From a virus, in UHGV virus genome UHGV-0149439: a DNA stretch of 29,037 bases, one strand, 5' to 3'. The notes beneath the pieces are model-generated. The model had not been told where the DNA came from and made no database searches. It saw nothing but the letters and a program-made list of their open reading frames with translations. The translations under genes and the position numbers were made by a program. Below, in pieces: positions 1,657-14,700 of the stretch (positions are counted from its first letter, which is position 1; each line of letters starts with the position of its first letter).

Positions 1657-2832
1657 TCAGTTAGTTTTTTTATTCAAGTGGGTAACAGATGTATTGTTAT
1701 CGTATGCTTTAAGATACCTACCGTAATGTCGAAAAAGCATCTCTGGCCCCTTATGCCCCATTTGCCCCGCCAGCCAGAAAAGGTTAACTCCTCGACTGAT
1801 TAGGCGTGTGGCATATGTGTGACGGGTCTGATAGGGATTGCGGTACCTGATACCGGCTTTCCGTAGCGTTGGCACCCACGCTTTTTTCCTTATTGCATCC
1901 GCGCTGGCCCATGGCTTGTATGTCTTTGGATCCTCAAAGACACAGCCATCTTTCATGAAAGTAAAGGGCTTTTGATCGTTAAGTGCGATTATCGCTTCCT
2001 CAGTTAATTCAACTTTGCGAGTTCCCGCCTTAGTTTTCGTACCTTTTGTCACGCCTGAAACACTGGCGCTCTGTACATGCGCCGTCTTCTCAATGAAATC
2101 AATATCCCTCCAGCGGAGTGCGCATAGTTCCGAGCTGCGAAGTCCTGTCTGGATCGCAAATCTGAATAAGTTCTTCCACTGCTTATTGCCTGTTGATGTT
2201 AACAGCGCGTTCACCTCAGCTGGTGACAGCGGATCAACCACATAACTACTTTCTGCCTCTGATTTATCACTTTGGTACCGTGAAGCTGTCACCAGTGATA
2301 CAGGGTTAATCTGAAGCACACCATCCGTCACCGCCTCATCCAAAGCTGAACGCAGGAATGACAGTTGGTTTCGGATAGTCTTTAATGTTGTTTTCTGGTT
2401 CTGGATCCATGTCTTCAGCGCGGCCGGCGTCAACTCACTTGCAGGAAAAATATGAAGTGATGACAGCGCGCTTCGGCATTTCTTATATCCACCAATTGTT
2501 GAAGGGGATAGTTTTCTCGTTTCACAGATAACCAGATACTCGTCCAGGTACATCTTCACCGTTTTGCCTGCGGCAGCGTTGCCGAAAATTTTTAACCGGG
2601 TAGAACGGGGAAAGTATTCTGCATAAACAAATGTCCCCCTCTCGATCTTGTTATGGATTTCGCCGAGTGTGCGCTCGGCGTATTTGATGTTTTTAGGAGT
2701 TACGTCCAGATTAGAAAGGGGCTCACGGCATTTAACCCCTTTATAAGTGAAAGTAATATTGATGGTTTCGCCGTTGCGGTGTTTCCTGATGGTTACGCCG
2801 CGCGGGAGCTTAGGCGATTCTGTCGTGCCCAT
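1657..2832 (-). CDS. int: Tyrosine recombinase / phage integrase
   Basis: N-terminal arm-type domain (GVTIRKHRNGETINITFTYKGVKCRE). C-terminal catalytic signature with LRSSELCALRW (Arg), HxxR in TRHTYATR, and HKGPEMLFRHYGRY (His, Tyr). Confidence 0.95.
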   Translation of the reverse strand: MGTTESPKLPRGVTIRKHRNGETINITFTYKGVKCREPLSNLDVTPKNIKYAERTLGEIHNKIERGTFVYAEYFPRSTRLKIFGNAAAGKTVKMYLDEYLVICETRKLSPSTIGGYKKCRSALSSLHIFPASELTPAALKTWIQNQKTTLKTIRNQLSFLRSALDEAVTDGVLQINPVSLVTASRYQSDKSEAESSYVVDPLSPAEVNALLTSTGNKQWKNLFRFAIQTGLRSSELCALRWRDIDFIEKTAHVQSASVSGVTKGTKTKAGTRKVELTEEAIIALNDQKPFTFMKDGCVFEDPKTYKPWASADAIRKKAWVPTLRKAGIRYRNPYQTRHTYATRLISRGVNLFWLAGQMGHKGPEMLFRHYGRYLKAYDNNTSVTHLNKKTN

Positions 2833-3011
2833 TTTGCAACCTCATTAAGATCAATCCATCTTTCCTTAACGCCGTCGACCTTTAGCACCTGAACCCCTTC
2901 ACGCCATACTCCACGTTGCACACGTTTGTTGATGGCATCCGGGGTTTCGCCAGTCTCTTTGCAATAAGTTGAGATGGGAACACAATCGAGGCTCAGCATA
3001 TATTTCTCCAT
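2793..3011 (-). CDS. xis: Excisionase (Xis-type small DNA-binding protein)
   Basis: Small basic protein directly upstream of int and overlapping it: ...ISTYCKETGETPDAINKRVQRGVWREGVQVLKVDG...WIDLNEVAKWAR. The likely true start is ATG 2999 (GGAG 8 nt upstream), giving 68 aa. Confidence 0.75.
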   Translation of the reverse strand: MEKYMLSLDCVPISTYCKETGETPDAINKRVQRGVWREGVQVLKVDGVKERWIDLNEVAKWARQNRLSSRAA

Positions 3012-3062: not shown

Positions 3063-3614
3063 TTAGTTGGTTTTCTTTAGTCCAAAGTAAAGTCCTGCGG
3101 CTATGCTTATTATGCCTGCAGCTAGAACACCAATAATCCAATAAAATAATGTTATAAATCGTTCTAACTGTTTGTCTGAGTAATCACTCATAACTTTTAA
3201 TGATGTGCTCAATGACTCCATATCTTTCTTCATGAGAGGTAAAGCCATTGCTTTTTCAGGACTATTTCCAAGTATATTATTAAGCGTGGATATCTTTTTC
3301 TGTATGTCATCAACTTTTACTTCCAACGCTTCTATTCGTATATTATCTGGGGTAAGGGTTGAAGTATTTTTTAAGGCACTTAACGTGTTTCTTACCTGAA
3401 ATATCTCATCCCTATAGGTGCTTATTTCGTTCATGAGATGATCTGTATCTATTTTTTTATCATAAGATGTAGGTAATGAAACATTTACTATTGAAGTGGC
3501 TTTATCTTTTATTTCTAAGGTCAAAGGAATGAGTATCGATCCCAAAGCGACCAGCATAAGAATAGGGGATAGTATTGCTATACTCTTTGCTAATGCGTTA
3601 CTTGTAAATGACAT
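3063..3614 (-). CDS. Hypothetical two-TM coiled-coil membrane protein, AT-rich cargo
   Basis: 183 aa with an N-terminal TM (IAILSPILMLVALGSILIPL), a central heptad-like region and a C-terminal TM (FYWIIGVLAAGIISIAAGLYFG). GAGGGA SD sits 4-5 nt before the ATG. Confidence 0.7.
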   Translation of the reverse strand: MSFTSNALAKSIAILSPILMLVALGSILIPLTLEIKDKATSIVNVSLPTSYDKKIDTDHLMNEISTYRDEIFQVRNTLSALKNTSTLTPDNIRIEALEVKVDDIQKKISTLNNILGNSPEKAMALPLMKKDMESLSTSLKVMSDYSDKQLERFITLFYWIIGVLAAGIISIAAGLYFGLKKTN

Positions 3615-3947
3615 GAGTCCCTCTTCATAGTATTGTGTAGTACGTTTTTATTGCAACTTACTGTTATGGATAGTTTTTTGTTAAAGTCATTGAGAGATTA
3701 GCATGTTTTAGCGTTAATTCATTGCTTTAATGAGGCCAAAACTAATATTCCAAGCCCTGTCTCATTTGCTTAATGACACTATAGGCCAACAGACAATTTA
3801 ATCATGGCAGCGTCCAGTGTCGATTTGATTTATTCATAAACATACTCGTATCCAGTAAGCCAAGAAAATCTGGCACTACGGTCATGCGGTCATTACTCAT
3901 GGTTTTACCCTCGTTATGGCGGCTGCCACCGCCGAACTTTCTCCATA

Positions 3948-4059
3948 CACAACAGAGAAGGGCATCTGCATTAGTCGGCGGCTTGCAGAGACCGCTTTCT
4001 TTTTGCCCGGGTGGATTGGGTTATGAGCCCGTCGCCCGGTGATGCCCTTTTCTGTTGTG
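3948..4059 (+). ncRNA. Candidate structured RNA (or MITE-like inverted-repeat element), family unknown
   Basis: 19-nt arms CACAACAGAGAAGGGCATC / GATGCCCTTTTCTGTTGTG enclose 74 nt with two GC-rich sub-hairpins. The single imperfect position is G.T on the plus strand and C.A on the minus strand. Confidence 0.3.
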
Positions 4060-4209
4060 CCCTGAAAAAGGCTGGCGGTTACCGGACAAGTGGGAAAACA
4101 CCGGGCCGCCAGAACAGGGAGTTACTTGTTATTGCTTTAGCCTGCTTTTAACCACATCAGGCGCGGTGGTATCCTTCTAAGTCGCTACAACCACGAAGGA
4201 ATTTTTTTT

Positions 4210-4449
4210 ATGAGCAATGTTACTTATCTCAACCATGCCAGGCTCGATGCCATTGAGTTGGCTATATCAAGGCTGGCTATTGCTATTACAGAGGCTGAAG
4301 GACCACATACTAAAGAGCTTGAAAGTTCTATCGCCCATTTCCGCGCGCTATTTGAAAAGCCTGATATCACTGAAAAAGAGCGCGAAACCTACCTCAGGAC
4401 GATAAGGTTGTTGGATCCATTAAATAGCGACCCTACCGAGCCGTTCTGA
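4210..4449 (+). CDS. Hypothetical 79-aa protein
   Basis: ATG with AAGGA 9 nt upstream. Helical acidic sequence with no recognisable motif. Its 3' end overlaps the convergent gene by 30 nt. Confidence 0.55.
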   Translation: MSNVTYLNHARLDAIELAISRLAIAITEAEGPHTKELESSIAHFRALFEKPDITEKERETYLRTIRLLDPLNSDPTEPF

Positions 4450-4725
4450 ATCGAGGCGTGCCGCTCTTTCCCTTCGCTCTAAAATCGCCTCAACAATTTC
4501 GACTCCATTGAGGCGCTTCTTTCCATTAATGTCCTGCTGGACCTCTTCTAATGCTGTTTGCGCAAGCTGAATGCGCGATTCAGTCCCGGAATTTGGCTCG
4601 AGCTGTTGAACTCGCTTAGCATCCTCCAGCAGTAGAGCAATGATGTGCTTCAGTTCGTTTGCGTCCACCGTGAACTCCTTTGAAATTTTAAGTGTTAGCG
4701 AATCATCCGGTTCTTCATATGCCAC
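4420..4725 (-). CDS. Hypothetical 101-aa acidic protein, first gene of the leftward (PL-like) transcript
   Basis: GTG start directly downstream of the OL-like operators and a TTGCGT-17-TATTGT promoter candidate. Same position as e14 ymfJ-type genes (from recollection). Confidence 0.6.
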   Translation of the reverse strand: MAYEEPDDSLTLKISKEFTVDANELKHIIALLLEDAKRVQQLEPNSGTESRIQLAQTALEEVQQDINGKKRLNGVEIVEAILERRERAARLDSERLGRVAI

Positions 4726-4783
4726 CGACGGCTACTTCGTGGGCGTCCTGCCTGTTCGCTATGGAGTAGACAATAAAATTAAA

Positions 4784-4821
4784 TTGCGAATAACGCAAGT
4801 AAATAATTGCGAATTGCGCAA
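4784..4821. promoter_or_regulatory. OL-like operator pair overlapping a leftward promoter
   Basis: Two perfect TTGCG-N5-CGCAA dyads: TTGCGAATAACGCAA (4784-4798) and TTGCGAATTGCGCAA (4807-4821). The same half-sites occur in the cI-cro intergenic region. Confidence 0.6.
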
Positions 4822-4876: not shown

Positions 4877-5569
4877 TCAGGCGTGACGTTTGAATGATTG
4901 AGATTGGCTTATCATTACTTTCCCAAAAATGTAAAAACGGTGTTCGTTAGTCTTGTCCACGGACCATTCTCTATATTTTGGGTTATCCGATATCACCAAC
5001 AACTTATCAGGTATCATCTGTAATCGTTTGACGTAAATTTTATCATCAAAACCAAATACATAGATTCCATCACCATCGAACTCATGAATAGAGATATCAA
5101 CGAAGAGAAGATCACCAGGCTCGATTGTCTCAGCCATACTGTCGCCTCGAACGTTGATTACCTTTACTTGATCTGCCGTTCTTCCGCCGAACATCGCTAG
5201 CGCACGTTCATTGTTGTATTCGATTGACCTGATGACATCAATGATGTCGCTGCCTTGAATAAAGCCGCCACCAGCACTGGCACTAACATCAAGAATCTCC
5301 ACTCTAAACACAGATCCATCTCCAGAATGTGGATTACTACCACTGTATTCACATACAGTAGTTTTATTTCCACCTGGAGTAAATAGATCAGCAACGCTAA
5401 CGCCTAAAGCTTGAGCATATTTGCTAAGTGATTGTTCAGTAAATGACTTCTGCTTGCCAGTTTCTACACGCGAGATGTTAGCTCCGTCGACACCAACGGC
5501 TTCAGCAAGATCAGCGATTTTTAGACCCTTCGCAGTGCGAAGTTCTCTTATGCGGTTTCCTATGTTCAT
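4877..5569 (-). CDS. cI: CI-like repressor: XRE HTH plus S24 (LexA-like) autocleavage domain
   Basis: N-terminal HTH (IRELRTAKGLKIADLAEAVGVDGANISRVETGK), an Ala-Gly site in SASAGGGF, catalytic Ser in VRGDSM and Lys in IYVKRL. Confidence 0.95.
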   Translation of the reverse strand: MNIGNRIRELRTAKGLKIADLAEAVGVDGANISRVETGKQKSFTEQSLSKYAQALGVSVADLFTPGGNKTTVCEYSGSNPHSGDGSVFRVEILDVSASAGGGFIQGSDIIDVIRSIEYNNERALAMFGGRTADQVKVINVRGDSMAETIEPGDLLFVDISIHEFDGDGIYVFGFDDKIYVKRLQMIPDKLLVISDNPKYREWSVDKTNEHRFYIFGKVMISQSQSFKRHA

Positions 5570-5666: not shown

Positions 5667-5912
5667 ATGCAATCACCGTTACGAATCTTGCGTAAATCGC
5701 AAGGTATGACTCTTTCCTATGTAGCAAAAGGGGTTGATATCGACCCGGGAAATCTAAGTCGGATAGAGCGAGGGCAGCAAATTGCTTCCCTAGATATTGC
5801 TGAACGTCTAGTCCGTTTCTTCGCGGGAAAAATCAATGAGCTAGAAATCCTTTATCCACACCGCTATTCGAACTGTACAGGCGCGAGTACAGACATAAAA
5901 CCACAGGAATAA
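5667..5912 (+). CDS. cro: Cro-like XRE-family HTH regulator
   Basis: Divergent from cI, with an AAGGAGGG SD. HTH reads MTLSYVAKGVDIDPGNLSRIERGQQ. Confidence 0.85.
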   Translation: MQSPLRILRKSQGMTLSYVAKGVDIDPGNLSRIERGQQIASLDIAERLVRFFAGKINELEILYPHRYSNCTGASTDIKPQE

Positions 5913-5922
5913 GGGGTTAACC

Positions 5923-6474
5923 GTGGGTAACGAACCAATCTGGAAAGTCGAACGTCAGCCTAGTTGGCTGGTGGTAGCGATTAAAAAAACGATTACCGAT
6001 CTGCCTGGTGGATATTCTGAGGCTGCGGAATGGTTGGGCGTGACAGAGAACGCATTGTTTAACCGCCTTCGTGTGGACGGGGATCAGATCTTCCCTATGG
6101 GATGGGCGATGGTGCTACAGAAAGCCGCCGGTGTTAGCTACATAGCAGATGCGTTTTCTCGTCAAACAGATAACGGGATTCATATCCCTGGTGCAGCACC
6201 AGAAACAGAGAACGAAGAAATTGGCTTAAAGCTGGCTGAGCTGGTGGGCAGGCTTGGGGATCTGGTCAACGCATACCGTCGATACATCGATGATGGTGTA
6301 GTTGATAAAGGGGAGTGGGACAGTCTGAATGAAATCGCCTACCAGTTCCGGGTAACGCTTATGACGTTCCTGAACCTGATTTCACGAGTTTATTGTCTTC
6401 CTGAAAAGAGTGACGCCCGCGAGTGTGCAGCTCCGGGCGCCTTGGCGAACAAATCTTCGAGTATGGAGAAATAA
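5923..6474 (+). CDS. Putative early regulator at the CII position (resembles e14 YmfL-type proteins, from recollection)
   Basis: GTG start with AAGGGG SD, 183 aa. HTH-like segment YSEAAEWLGVTENALFNRLR. Placed directly after cro. Confidence 0.6.
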   Translation: MGNEPIWKVERQPSWLVVAIKKTITDLPGGYSEAAEWLGVTENALFNRLRVDGDQIFPMGWAMVLQKAAGVSYIADAFSRQTDNGIHIPGAAPETENEEIGLKLAELVGRLGDLVNAYRRYIDDGVVDKGEWDSLNEIAYQFRVTLMTFLNLISRVYCLPEKSDARECAAPGALANKSSSMEK

Positions 6475-13427: not shown

Positions 13428-14279
13428 ATGAAAATAGATAATCCCGAAAATCCACTTGAACGAAACGATTTTACGATGGATGACTTCCATCACTACTTAA
13501 GGGAGTTTGATAAAGCTGTATGTGAAGCGAATGCTGTAAGTCAGGGGGTTGGTGTGCGAATGGCTGAGGCTTTTAAAGGGTGGTCTACATACATTTTTTC
13601 ACGAATCTGCATTCATGCTTCAATAATGATTTCCAACGTACCAAGATCAAGATGGGCTAAGCGGGATTATGACTTTTGGGATTTTTCGGCGATTGCACCT
13701 CATGTAAGAGCGATTCTGGAAGCTGAGTTATTGTTTATGTATTTATCTGAGAATCCAGATTCAACTGAGGAGTGGTCAGCAAAGTTGAATGTCATGCACA
13801 TGAATGATTGTGTAAAGAGAATTGAGTTATTTACATCTAGTGATAATACGAAAGCATTGGATTTTTATCATGAACAAAAAGATATAATAACTGAGAGACT
13901 TAATAACAACCCTGTTTTTTTATCCCTTGAACAAGGAACCAGAAAACGTTGCTTGACTGGAAAAGCGCTTATGATTCCAAATCGAGATGAGTTATTGGTT
14001 AAACTGGGAAAAGATCCAAAGTCATTTAAAATAATGTTCGATTTTTTATCTCATTATACGCATATACTACCTATGTCATATTATAAAATGGAGCCAAACG
14101 GAAGGGGAACTGGTTGTTTTAACAACTATGACTTTGGCTATATGATTATGGGGATGATTATTTGTACTGAATCCTTGACTAAGTGTACAGATAGATTAGT
14201 AGAACTTTTTCCTGATGTTAGACGGTTGCGAAAAGGAACTAAATCAAAATTCACGTTAGGGCCTAAACCAACAAAATAA
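13428..14279 (+). CDS. Hypothetical 283-aa protein: AT-rich moron between Q and the holins
   Basis: Long clean ORF with an SD, probably all-helical, no TM segment and no catalytic motif I can assign. It has its own TATAAT/palindrome and terminator. Confidence 0.8.
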   Translation: MKIDNPENPLERNDFTMDDFHHYLREFDKAVCEANAVSQGVGVRMAEAFKGWSTYIFSRICIHASIMISNVPRSRWAKRDYDFWDFSAIAPHVRAILEAELLFMYLSENPDSTEEWSAKLNVMHMNDCVKRIELFTSSDNTKALDFYHEQKDIITERLNNNPVFLSLEQGTRKRCLTGKALMIPNRDELLVKLGKDPKSFKIMFDFLSHYTHILPMSYYKMEPNGRGTGCFNNYDFGYMIMGMIICTESLTKCTDRLVELFPDVRRLRKGTKSKFTLGPKPTK

Positions 14280-14674: not shown

Positions 14675-14700
14675 AGGCTGCCAGATGGCGGCCTTTTTTA
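14675..14700 (+). terminator. Intrinsic terminator immediately upstream of the holin gene
   Basis: AGGCTGCC-AGAT-GGCGGCCT (one U.G pair) followed by TTTTTTATT. Confidence 0.75.

Follow-up and report, generated by a model that had tools for sequence, protein, structure and literature searches.

What is a GC-rich, self-complementary block without a convincing open reading frame (ORF) doing in the early region of a lambdoid prophage? The question is raised by positions 3615–4209 of the virus genome UHGV-0149439, analyzed here as one stretch of 29,037 nucleotides (nt; hereafter, the window). An earlier note, made from the sequence alone, had described the right half of this gap as a multi-hairpin element that could be a 5' leader or riboregulator of the gene to its right, a stand-alone noncoding RNA, or an inverted-repeat insertion. 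The window is a lambdoid prophage of the N-less, ST64B/phiNP/LLS kind, and we found that the block does encode a structured RNA, which is strongly conserved, is read from the minus strand, and lies in the leftward transcript of the prophage promoter PL. We found no published description of the three-way junction in this RNA, and the junction is apparently undescribed.

A conserved structured RNA in an ORF-free gap

The gap contains no ORF of 60 amino acids (aa) or more; what is left of yfdP there is a minus-strand ORF of 32 codons (3900–3802). The GC content of the block is 0.54–0.56, compared with 0.33–0.39 in the left flank. Two 19-nt arms (3948–3966 and 4041–4059), complementary except for one imperfect pair (94.7% inverted match), enclose two GC-rich sub-hairpins, and a second hairpin, CTGGCGG..CCGG/CCGG..CCGCCAG, was confirmed at 4072–4112. 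When the 336 nt from 3880 to 4215 were folded and compared with dinucleotide shuffles, the z-scores were −5.05 for the plus strand and −4.48 for the minus strand, and none of 100 shuffles folded as well. These features bear out the description of a self-complementary, GC-rich, ORF-free block. The earlier note assigned the element to no RNA family, and Rfam likewise returned nothing credible over the block, at gathering or permissive thresholds, in the window and six relatives. A third hairpin, GTGGT-N21-ACCAC, which had been placed just before the Shine-Dalgarno sequence of the gene starting at 4210, consists of a 5-base pair (bp) stem and a 21-nt loop. Because homology to the relatives stops at 4173, leaving the right half of this hairpin outside the conserved block, it looks like a chance occurrence.

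The long arms close a three-way-junction RNA, here called E2 (3947–4060, minus strand), which was delineated by the minimum free energy fold and covariation. Its P1 stem (4060–4041 with 3966–3947) is a 20-bp, A/U-rich helix with a conserved central mismatch. The P2 arm (4039–4007) is near-invariant and consists of an internal loop, CGAC/AAUCCA, and an apical hairpin, GGGCUCAUAACCC, at 4030–4018. The P3 arm (4006–3968) varies in length and sequence.

Covariation supports these helices. Among 37 diverse sequences sharing less than 93% identity, 95.3% of the alignment cells at paired positions were paired, a value reached by none of 500 shuffles, and double changes occurred at seven pairs. When the partners were slid relative to each other, pairing dropped to 37–55%. 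The double changes include 16-114 (GC 19, CG 18), 19-111 (AU 31, GC 6), 22-108 (AU 30, GC 5), 11-119 (CG 27, AU 5), 33-57 (GC 28, AU 4), and 65-99 (GC 26, AU 9). RNAalifold recovered the same P1 and, in addition, paired the U-tract of the preceding terminator with the GGAGA of a conserved tail (both described below). The check on homologous loci that had been suggested for the predicted fold thus backs the helices. P1 contains no indels and is of invariant length across about 100 variants. P3 is 13, 14, 15, 16, 17, 21, or 32–38 nt long, and the lengths of the whole element fall into all three residue classes modulo 3. A protein-coding origin of E2 was considered and rejected, the P3 lengths not being multiples of three and all residue classes being represented.

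The wobble pairs of the homologues identify the strand. Read on the minus strand, the first sample contains about 60 G.U cells versus about six A.C cells (read off the pair table). A second sample, anchored on the 3' arm instead of P2 and comprising 64 distinct sequences, contains 109 G.U cells over at least ten columns versus 28 A.C cells, 19 of which occupy a single P1 position that is mismatched in almost every sequence. Because each of these G.U pairs would read A.C on the plus strand, the pattern points to selection on the minus-strand RNA. The counts are of cells in related sequences and do not represent independent changes; what carries the strand argument is how many separate columns are involved. 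The earlier note had favored a plus-strand RNA from the single G.T pair of the window; this pair turns out to be the habitually mismatched P1 position, and the wobbles of the homologues argue for the opposite strand. A covariance model of E2 (R1) located a single copy in the window, which scored 105.5 bits on the minus strand and 40.5 bits on the plus strand.

E2 follows an intrinsic terminator in the PL leader

The PL promoter and its OL operators were read from the sequence at 4770–4821 (minus strand), with repeats ttgcgNNattcgcaa at 4821–4807 and 4798–4784, a −35 element TTGCGT at 4798–4793, and a −10 element TATTGT at 4775–4770. PL lies just downstream of cI, the repressor gene (4877–5569), and the cI terminator. 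Relatives show the same layout with different promoters and operators. The order of the repressor, cro, and cII-like genes, together with the operators, indicates that PL reads leftward, which puts the block on the minus strand, within the early-left transcript.

In this transcript, E2 is preceded by two conserved features. Block A, GGAUACCACCGCGCCUGAUGUGGUUAAAAGCAGGC (4141–4173, minus strand), is a leader segment recognized in alignments; it marks the start of the part shared with the E. coli, Flotzy, and sal3 relatives, homology to the E. coli relatives beginning at 4173 in the transcript sense. It is followed by an intrinsic terminator (4064–4112, minus strand), in which a GC hairpin with the stem CUGGCGG (4112–4106)/CCGCCAG (4078–4072) and an inner CCGG/CCGG helix precedes the U-run CCUUUUUC (4071–4064) on the transcribed strand. 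The second hairpin of the block therefore makes a terminator motif on the minus strand only; on the plus strand, no terminator follows the hairpins. A run of T5–7 lies immediately 5' of the long P1 hairpin in 42 of 45 representative homologues. In these 42, the 62 nt of upstream sequence also contain a hairpin of differing sequence, mostly with a strong GC stem abutting the T-run; in about six (L008, L012, L018, L034, L038, and L125), the fold shows no more than a weak stem. In L099, L016, and L075, E2 has no terminator in front of it, and in L099 and L016 it directly follows a promoter.

The 3' end of a homologous leader transcript has already been mapped. sRNA-17 of E. coli K1 is a small RNA (sRNA) of 193 nt that was detected by rapid amplification of cDNA ends (RACE) and Northern blotting (Sun et al. 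2020; PMC7719688). Its position is in the homologous leader of E. coli E2863 (L006, 3001–3193), beginning with GUUGUGGUGAAU and ending, according to 3' RACE and Northern data, at the U-run of the terminator hairpin (PMC7719688). The Northern probe and RACE primers show that it is co-directional with yfdP (PMC7719688 Table S2). The mapped 5' end (GUUGUGG...) falls within the 3' arm of an analogous upstream long hairpin closed by CACAAC/GUUGUG, and the authors reported an ArcA-regulated promoter (PMC7719688). The window shares with sRNA-17 the strand, the location between the prophage repressor and yfdP, and the terminator, that of sRNA-17 being the homologue of the second hairpin in the window. 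In contrast, E2 is not part of sRNA-17 and begins right after its 3' end. The window lacks the sRNA-17/STnc100-like body and keeps block A, an A/U-rich linker, and the terminator, which plausibly make up a candidate terminated leader or sRNA of ~110 nt (4173–4064). The proposal of a stand-alone noncoding RNA survives in part, in that 4064 is probably the end of a terminated leader or sRNA, although on the strand opposite to the one proposed.

The segment 4064–4173 resembles an Hfq-type sRNA and is 90–97% identical in 306 E. coli genomes; in phage Flotzy, where identity is ~80%, it is followed by further sRNA-like modules. The Rfam model of STnc100 (RF02076) gave sub-threshold matches in sal3 (37.5 bits) and ST64B (35.1 bits; gathering threshold, 47), located just upstream of the terminator and not over the long hairpin. 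The same model had no match in window positions 3500–4500 even at E ≤ 10, and PasD/STnc100 proper differs in that it is reported near the Q and lysis genes, not in the PL leader.

Deletion of sRNA-17 raised yfdP 95-fold, and repression of yfdP and yfdR by the sRNA was reported (PMC7719688). The design of that deletion kept the terminator and inserted a cat cassette (PMC7719688 Table S2). The up-shift of yfdP is probably a cis (polar) effect at the leader. With the terminator retained and a cassette that, given the pKD3 design, presumably reads towards yfdP, such an effect explains the rise more simply than regulation in trans.

A conserved tail and hairpin link E2 to the first cistron

Downstream of E2 lies a conserved tail, GGAGAAAG (3937–3944, minus strand; GGAGAAA-type), with the consensus GGAGAAAC(U/C)AAC, which is complementary to the terminator U-tract. 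It is kept in almost all homologues whatever gene comes next and marks the 3' boundary of the module. In read-through transcripts, P1 could grow to about 27 bp through the modeled pairing between the tail and the U-tract. The tail is followed, just upstream of the Shine-Dalgarno sequence, by the hairpin P4, GGCGGU-GGCA-GCCGCC (3918–3933, minus strand). A P4 hairpin with a KGCA loop is present in 98 of 120 distinct downstream contexts, before different genes, and its stems covary (GGCGG/CCGCC, CGACC/GGUCG, AGCGCC/GGCGCU, CCUU/GAGG). Pairing between the P3 and P4 loops (CUGC:GCAG, UGCA:UGCA) followed no consistent pattern across variants when compared by eye only. E2 always lies about 45–55 nt upstream of a start codon. 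In the window, the Shine-Dalgarno sequence GAGGG (3912–3908) precedes a truncated yfdP (minus strand; ATG at 3900, stop at 3804–3802), which translates into 32 codons. Homology to YfdP ends after ~24 codons and is followed by AT-rich foreign DNA, the edge of the E. coli homology being at 3829.

The arrangement resembles lambda nut in that a conserved linear 12-mer, GGAGAAACUAAC, a short spacer, and a hairpin (P4) whose loop is conserved and whose stem covaries follow one another in a PL leader. The consensus of boxA is GCUCUUUAAC. The 12-mer is unlike this consensus, no boxA-like GCUCUUUAAC is present on the transcript strand, and P4 has a KGCA loop in place of a GNRA-like pentaloop. Moreover, the P4 region lies downstream of the leader terminator, and no N-like protein is known in this phage group (PMC12315714).

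The module is widespread at one prophage position

More than 200 loci in phages and prophages have kept the element. Megablast detected the version found in the window in 306 of 5426 complete E. coli genomes, and the E. coli-type long hairpin is present in 2808 of the 5426, at one to five copies each (median 1), with O157:H7 and Nissle 1917 among the carriers. Pattern scans found it in 20 Enterobacterales species representatives and several hundred IMG/VR contigs. At the loci examined, the copy always lies between the prophage repressor/PL and the leftward genes (yfdP-yfdQ-yfdR or rdgC). The module is portable, preceding yfdP, rdgC-like, and other genes, and has been lost from the region upstream of yfdP in the CPS-53 prophage of E. 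coli K-12. In the records examined, the stretch is unannotated or labeled 'hypothetical protein'. A search for proteins that co-occur with E2 gave only linked immunity genes, namely, a YmfL-family cII-like gene at 41 of 45 loci, and repressors.

E1, a second structured RNA at the 5' end of the PL transcript

The PL transcript begins with another conserved structured RNA of ~65 nt, E1 (4697–4760, minus strand), in which an outer helix, AGCGAA/UUCGCU, encloses two inner hairpins. E1 is present in 51 phage records, and its 116 unique variants directly follow promoters of many different immunity types. In the E1 alignment, 94.4% of cells were paired, none of 500 shuffles reached this value, and five pairs showed double changes, including 41-58 (GC 16, CG 5, UA 4), 43-56 (UA 16, GC 8), and 8-69 (GC 18, AU 6). 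E1 had no match in Rfam. It occupies the position of putL, from +3 to +70, and is unrelated in sequence to HK022 putL. By analogy, E1 is a candidate new RNA antiterminator of the put-like kind or a 5' stabilizer.

The E1 loop (about 4716–4706; UAUGA/GAAUGA) is complementary to the P2 loop of E2 (4027–4021; UCAUA/UCAUUC). An E1 loop with GAAUGAC accompanies 11 of 17 variants with U37 in the P2 loop versus 20 of 85 canonical ones, a loose association across loci. A test for kissing between the two loops thus found some association of loop variants and no consistent covariation, and we claim no interaction.

The P2 loop resembles the initiator tRNA anticodon arm

Over 14 nt, the apical hairpin of P2, CGGGCUCAUAACCC, exactly matches the anticodon arm of the E. 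coli metY initiator tRNA (tRNA-fMet). The two share a 7-nt loop with a CAU anticodon and three consecutive G-C pairs. They differ in that P2 has a C.A mismatch in place of the 28-42 pair, E2 homologues vary at positions 37 and 38, and E2 has no further tRNA features. Of 64 variants, 61 retain CAU and about 60 retain GGG/CCC. The loop also carries a YUNR U-turn signature, which is typical of RNA-RNA recognition loops. ARAGORN found no tRNA or tmRNA in the window or in seven related loci.

Other tRNA-like pieces recur in these leaders, where T-arm-like hairpins are found besides the anticodon-arm-like P2 loop. In sal3 (L004, about 3440–3545, minus strand), as well as in L007 and L008, an upstream leader module consists of a long hairpin closed by CACAAC/GUUGUG that contains two T-arm-like hairpins, CUGGUUCGAUUCCAG and GUCCGUUCAAUUCGGAC.

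E2 as a possible processing element of read-through transcripts

The order of events in the leader is strongly supported. Leftward transcription from PL, starting at about 4763, passes through E1, the truncated first gene, block A, and the intrinsic terminator (4112–4064), where a leader or sRNA-type transcript ends and which shields the early-left genes of the lysogen from this transcription. Beyond the U-tract come E2, the GGAGAAAC tail, and P4, and then the first early-left gene with its ribosome-binding site; in the window, this gene is the yfdP remnant. For the function of the block, we tentatively favor, at a probability of about 40%, the reading that it is a cis-acting leader of the early-left (PL) operon in which E2 serves as a processing or stability element after read-through.

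According to this proposal, E2 would be active only in transcripts that read through the terminator. P1, lengthened to about 27 bp by pairing between the U-tract and GGAGA, would be a processing and stability site for a double-strand-specific (RNase III-type) enzyme. Cleavage would sever the long structured leader and the sRNA modules from the coding part and would set the 5' end, and hence the translation and half-life, of the early-left mRNA, tuning the first cistron. The P2 arm, with its YUNR U-turn loop like that of the initiator tRNA anticodon, would be where a conserved host factor or a partner RNA makes contact. A partner from the host is indicated because the P2 sequence is conserved across phages whose proteins differ.

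RNase III processing hairpins are known from the lambda N-leader, lambda sib, and T7 R1.1, and the sites in the lambda PL leader and the T7 R-sites serve as precedents here. E2 resembles them in its long helix, which spans about two turns and is near-perfect apart from a central mismatch, in its placement in an early leader just upstream of the first cistron, and in being positioned to part upstream RNA from the mRNA. P1 is long, near-perfect, and A/U-rich, and reaches the length of ~20 bp or more of near-continuous helix expected of an RNase III site. The location of the sRNA-17 5' end inside the 3' arm of a similar CACAAC/GUUGUG hairpin is a further hint at processing. E2 differs from the known sites, to which it has no sequence relationship, in its highly conserved branched top, P2, which is unneeded there.

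Several points weigh against this reading. The conservation of the P2 sequence exceeds the needs of a plain RNase III site and points to a specific ligand. Cleavage of E2 by RNase III is proposed by analogy. The 5' end of sRNA-17 may be a true transcription start, a −10-like hexamer, GAGAAT, being located at −13 to −8. The three terminator-less variants weaken the reading as well, given that E2 in two of them (L099 and L016) sits right after a promoter, as putL does. Finally, the cell counts overstate the number of independent covariation events, the sequences being related.

Alternative explanations

We consider it unlikely that E2, alone or with E1, is an antiterminator of the put kind, a nascent RNA that binds RNA polymerase and replaces the missing N. 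Casjens and colleagues described this phage group as lacking the N antiterminator and speculated that it uses put-like RNA (PMC12315714). The leader terminators need to be overcome somehow, and a host target such as RNA polymerase would fit the conservation of P2 among phages whose proteins are not the same. The direct promoter linkage of E2 in L099 and L016 is also compatible with such a role. Like putL/putR of HK022 and the putL-like RNA of HK639, E2 is structured, acts in cis, and belongs to an early operon with terminators downstream, in a lambdoid phage without N. However, put consists of two stem-loops of about 70 nt, whereas E2 is a three-way junction of about 110–130 nt, and neither the sequences of putL and the putL-like RNA nor a search of HK022 and HK639 with model R1 revealed any similarity. 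In most loci, E2 lies 208–1844 nt downstream of E1/PL. Neither E1 nor E2 has a second copy after PR, and the single copy of E2 contrasts with HK022, which has both putL and putR (PMC9378689). Because E2 follows the leader terminator in 42 of 45 variants, it is not what gets polymerase past it. E1, which is as promoter-proximal as HK022 putL (at PL only), appears from this analogy to be a better candidate than E2 for taking polymerase past the leader terminators. In the record of HK639 (L363), an 'M3-like RNA' is annotated at 37910–37969, after the cII-like gene, besides the putL-like RNA.

It is quite doubtful that E2 is a translational or host-factor operator built around a mimic of the initiator tRNA anticodon arm, controlling initiation or decoying a host factor. 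Under this explanation, the possible ligands of GGGCUCAUAACCC would be the 30S P site or IF3, MetRS, and a VapC-type anticodon nuclease; alternatively, its CUCAU loop might pair with AUGAG at the first gene's start or in its Shine-Dalgarno region. The 14-nt identity to metY includes the three G-C pairs that mark initiator tRNA, CAU and GGG/CCC are kept in most variants, the distance from E2 to the start codon stays at about 45–55 nt, and AUGAG does occur at the start of yfdP in loci of the window type and in the Shine-Dalgarno region in loci of the E. coli type. On the other hand, loop positions 37 and 38 vary (AA, UA, UC), with some variants carrying a pyrimidine at 37, something not tolerated in tRNAs; the loop of one diverged homologue, AACUAA, is unrelated; and ARAGORN was negative for a tRNA-like gene. 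In addition, the complementarity to the start region is short and missing for some downstream genes, and the resemblance was spotted after the fact.

A combined role is similarly doubtful: E1 and E2 could jointly provide an unrecognized protein-independent RNA control of the early-left operon in the N-less ST64B/phiNP/LLS/mEp460-like group, with E1 belonging to a put-like antiterminator class and E2 binding the host machinery (ribosome, IF3, RNA polymerase, or an anticodon-directed enzyme) through its tRNA-like arm.

A DNA-level role, as an element resembling a miniature inverted-repeat transposable element (MITE), a protein-binding palindrome, or a linker kept by recombination at mosaic junctions, is very unlikely. 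E. coli genomes contain up to five copies, the module boundaries lie at mosaic joints, and CACAAC/GUUGUG motifs recur at module borders. However, every copy whose neighborhood was examined occupies the same syntenic prophage position, and there is one copy per window. The compensatory changes and the asymmetric G.U pattern reflect selection on the single-stranded RNA of one strand, and no target-site duplications were noticed in the alignments, although no search was aimed at them or at terminal inverted repeats. A MITE or dispersed repeat, as contemplated in the earlier note, was rejected given one copy in 29 kb and a median of one copy per E. coli genome, all copies examined being in early-left leaders.

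Least probable, and essentially excluded, is a plus-strand RNA, either the leader or riboregulator of gene 4210–4449 or a stand-alone transcript: the 79-aa gene directly right of the block is probably real (full-length match to phrog_28250, E = 1e-17), the plus-strand fold is good, as hairpin-rich DNA gives on both strands, and the one imperfect P1 pair of the window is G.T there, but the element is kept without this gene in more than 200 loci, always between PL and the leftward genes, homology ends at 4173, the wobbles of the homologues would be A.C mismatches, no terminator follows the hairpins, a weak hairpin and T8 (4174–4209) intervene before the ATG, the mapped homologous RNA is on the opposite strand, and a promoter scan of the block found no convincing plus-strand promoter for gene 4210.

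Genomic setting

The left part of the window encodes an integrase (1657–2832, minus strand) and an excisionase (2793–3011, minus strand). The immunity region comprises an S24/HTH cI-type repressor (4877–5569, minus strand), cro (5667–5912, plus strand), and a YmfL/CII-like gene (5923–6474, plus strand). A gene for DinI was also identified in the window, and replication, Q, lysis, and head genes occupy the right-hand side. Among phages, the window is closest to Citrobacter phiNP and Chris1, E. coli Flotzy, Eeyore, and LLS, and Salmonella ST64B and sal3.

An AT-rich segment (3063–3828; 33–35% GC) replaces most of yfdP and the remainder of the early-left operon. Its 183-aa ORF (3063–3614, minus strand) had no PHROG matches and no Pfam matches above the cut-off, and may be cargo or a defense-type moron adjoining xis and int. 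Gene 4210–4449 (plus strand) is convergent with gene 4420–4668 (minus strand), with a 30-nt overlap. The latter, the first gene of the PL transcript, matches just the N-terminal ~50 aa of the longer families phrog_2982 and phrog_12693, and it looks as if a moron has been inserted into the first PL gene at 4210–4668, truncating it. In E. coli relatives, the position of 4420–4668 is occupied by a gene annotated as encoding a ClpX-type zinc-finger protein. The sole Rfam family in the window is isrI (RF01392; 14564–14660, plus strand; 47.5 bits compared with a gathering threshold of 45), located between an ORF ending at 14279 and ORFs starting at 14685.

Implications for N-less phages and their hosts

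The terminator of the block is ordinary, the 3' end of its homologue having already been mapped. In contrast, E2 with its tail and P4 is a well-supported and very widespread leader RNA motif that is apparently undescribed, found in prophages of about half of the complete E. coli genomes and in at least 20 Enterobacterales species, and without an Rfam family. For genome annotation, the gain would be one or two well-supported RNA motifs. Reading the block as a leader would also correct the interpretation of the published sRNA-17 data, with the change in yfdP probably arising in cis and not in trans. Defining E2 and E1 would make early-gene expression of the N-less phages a testable question.

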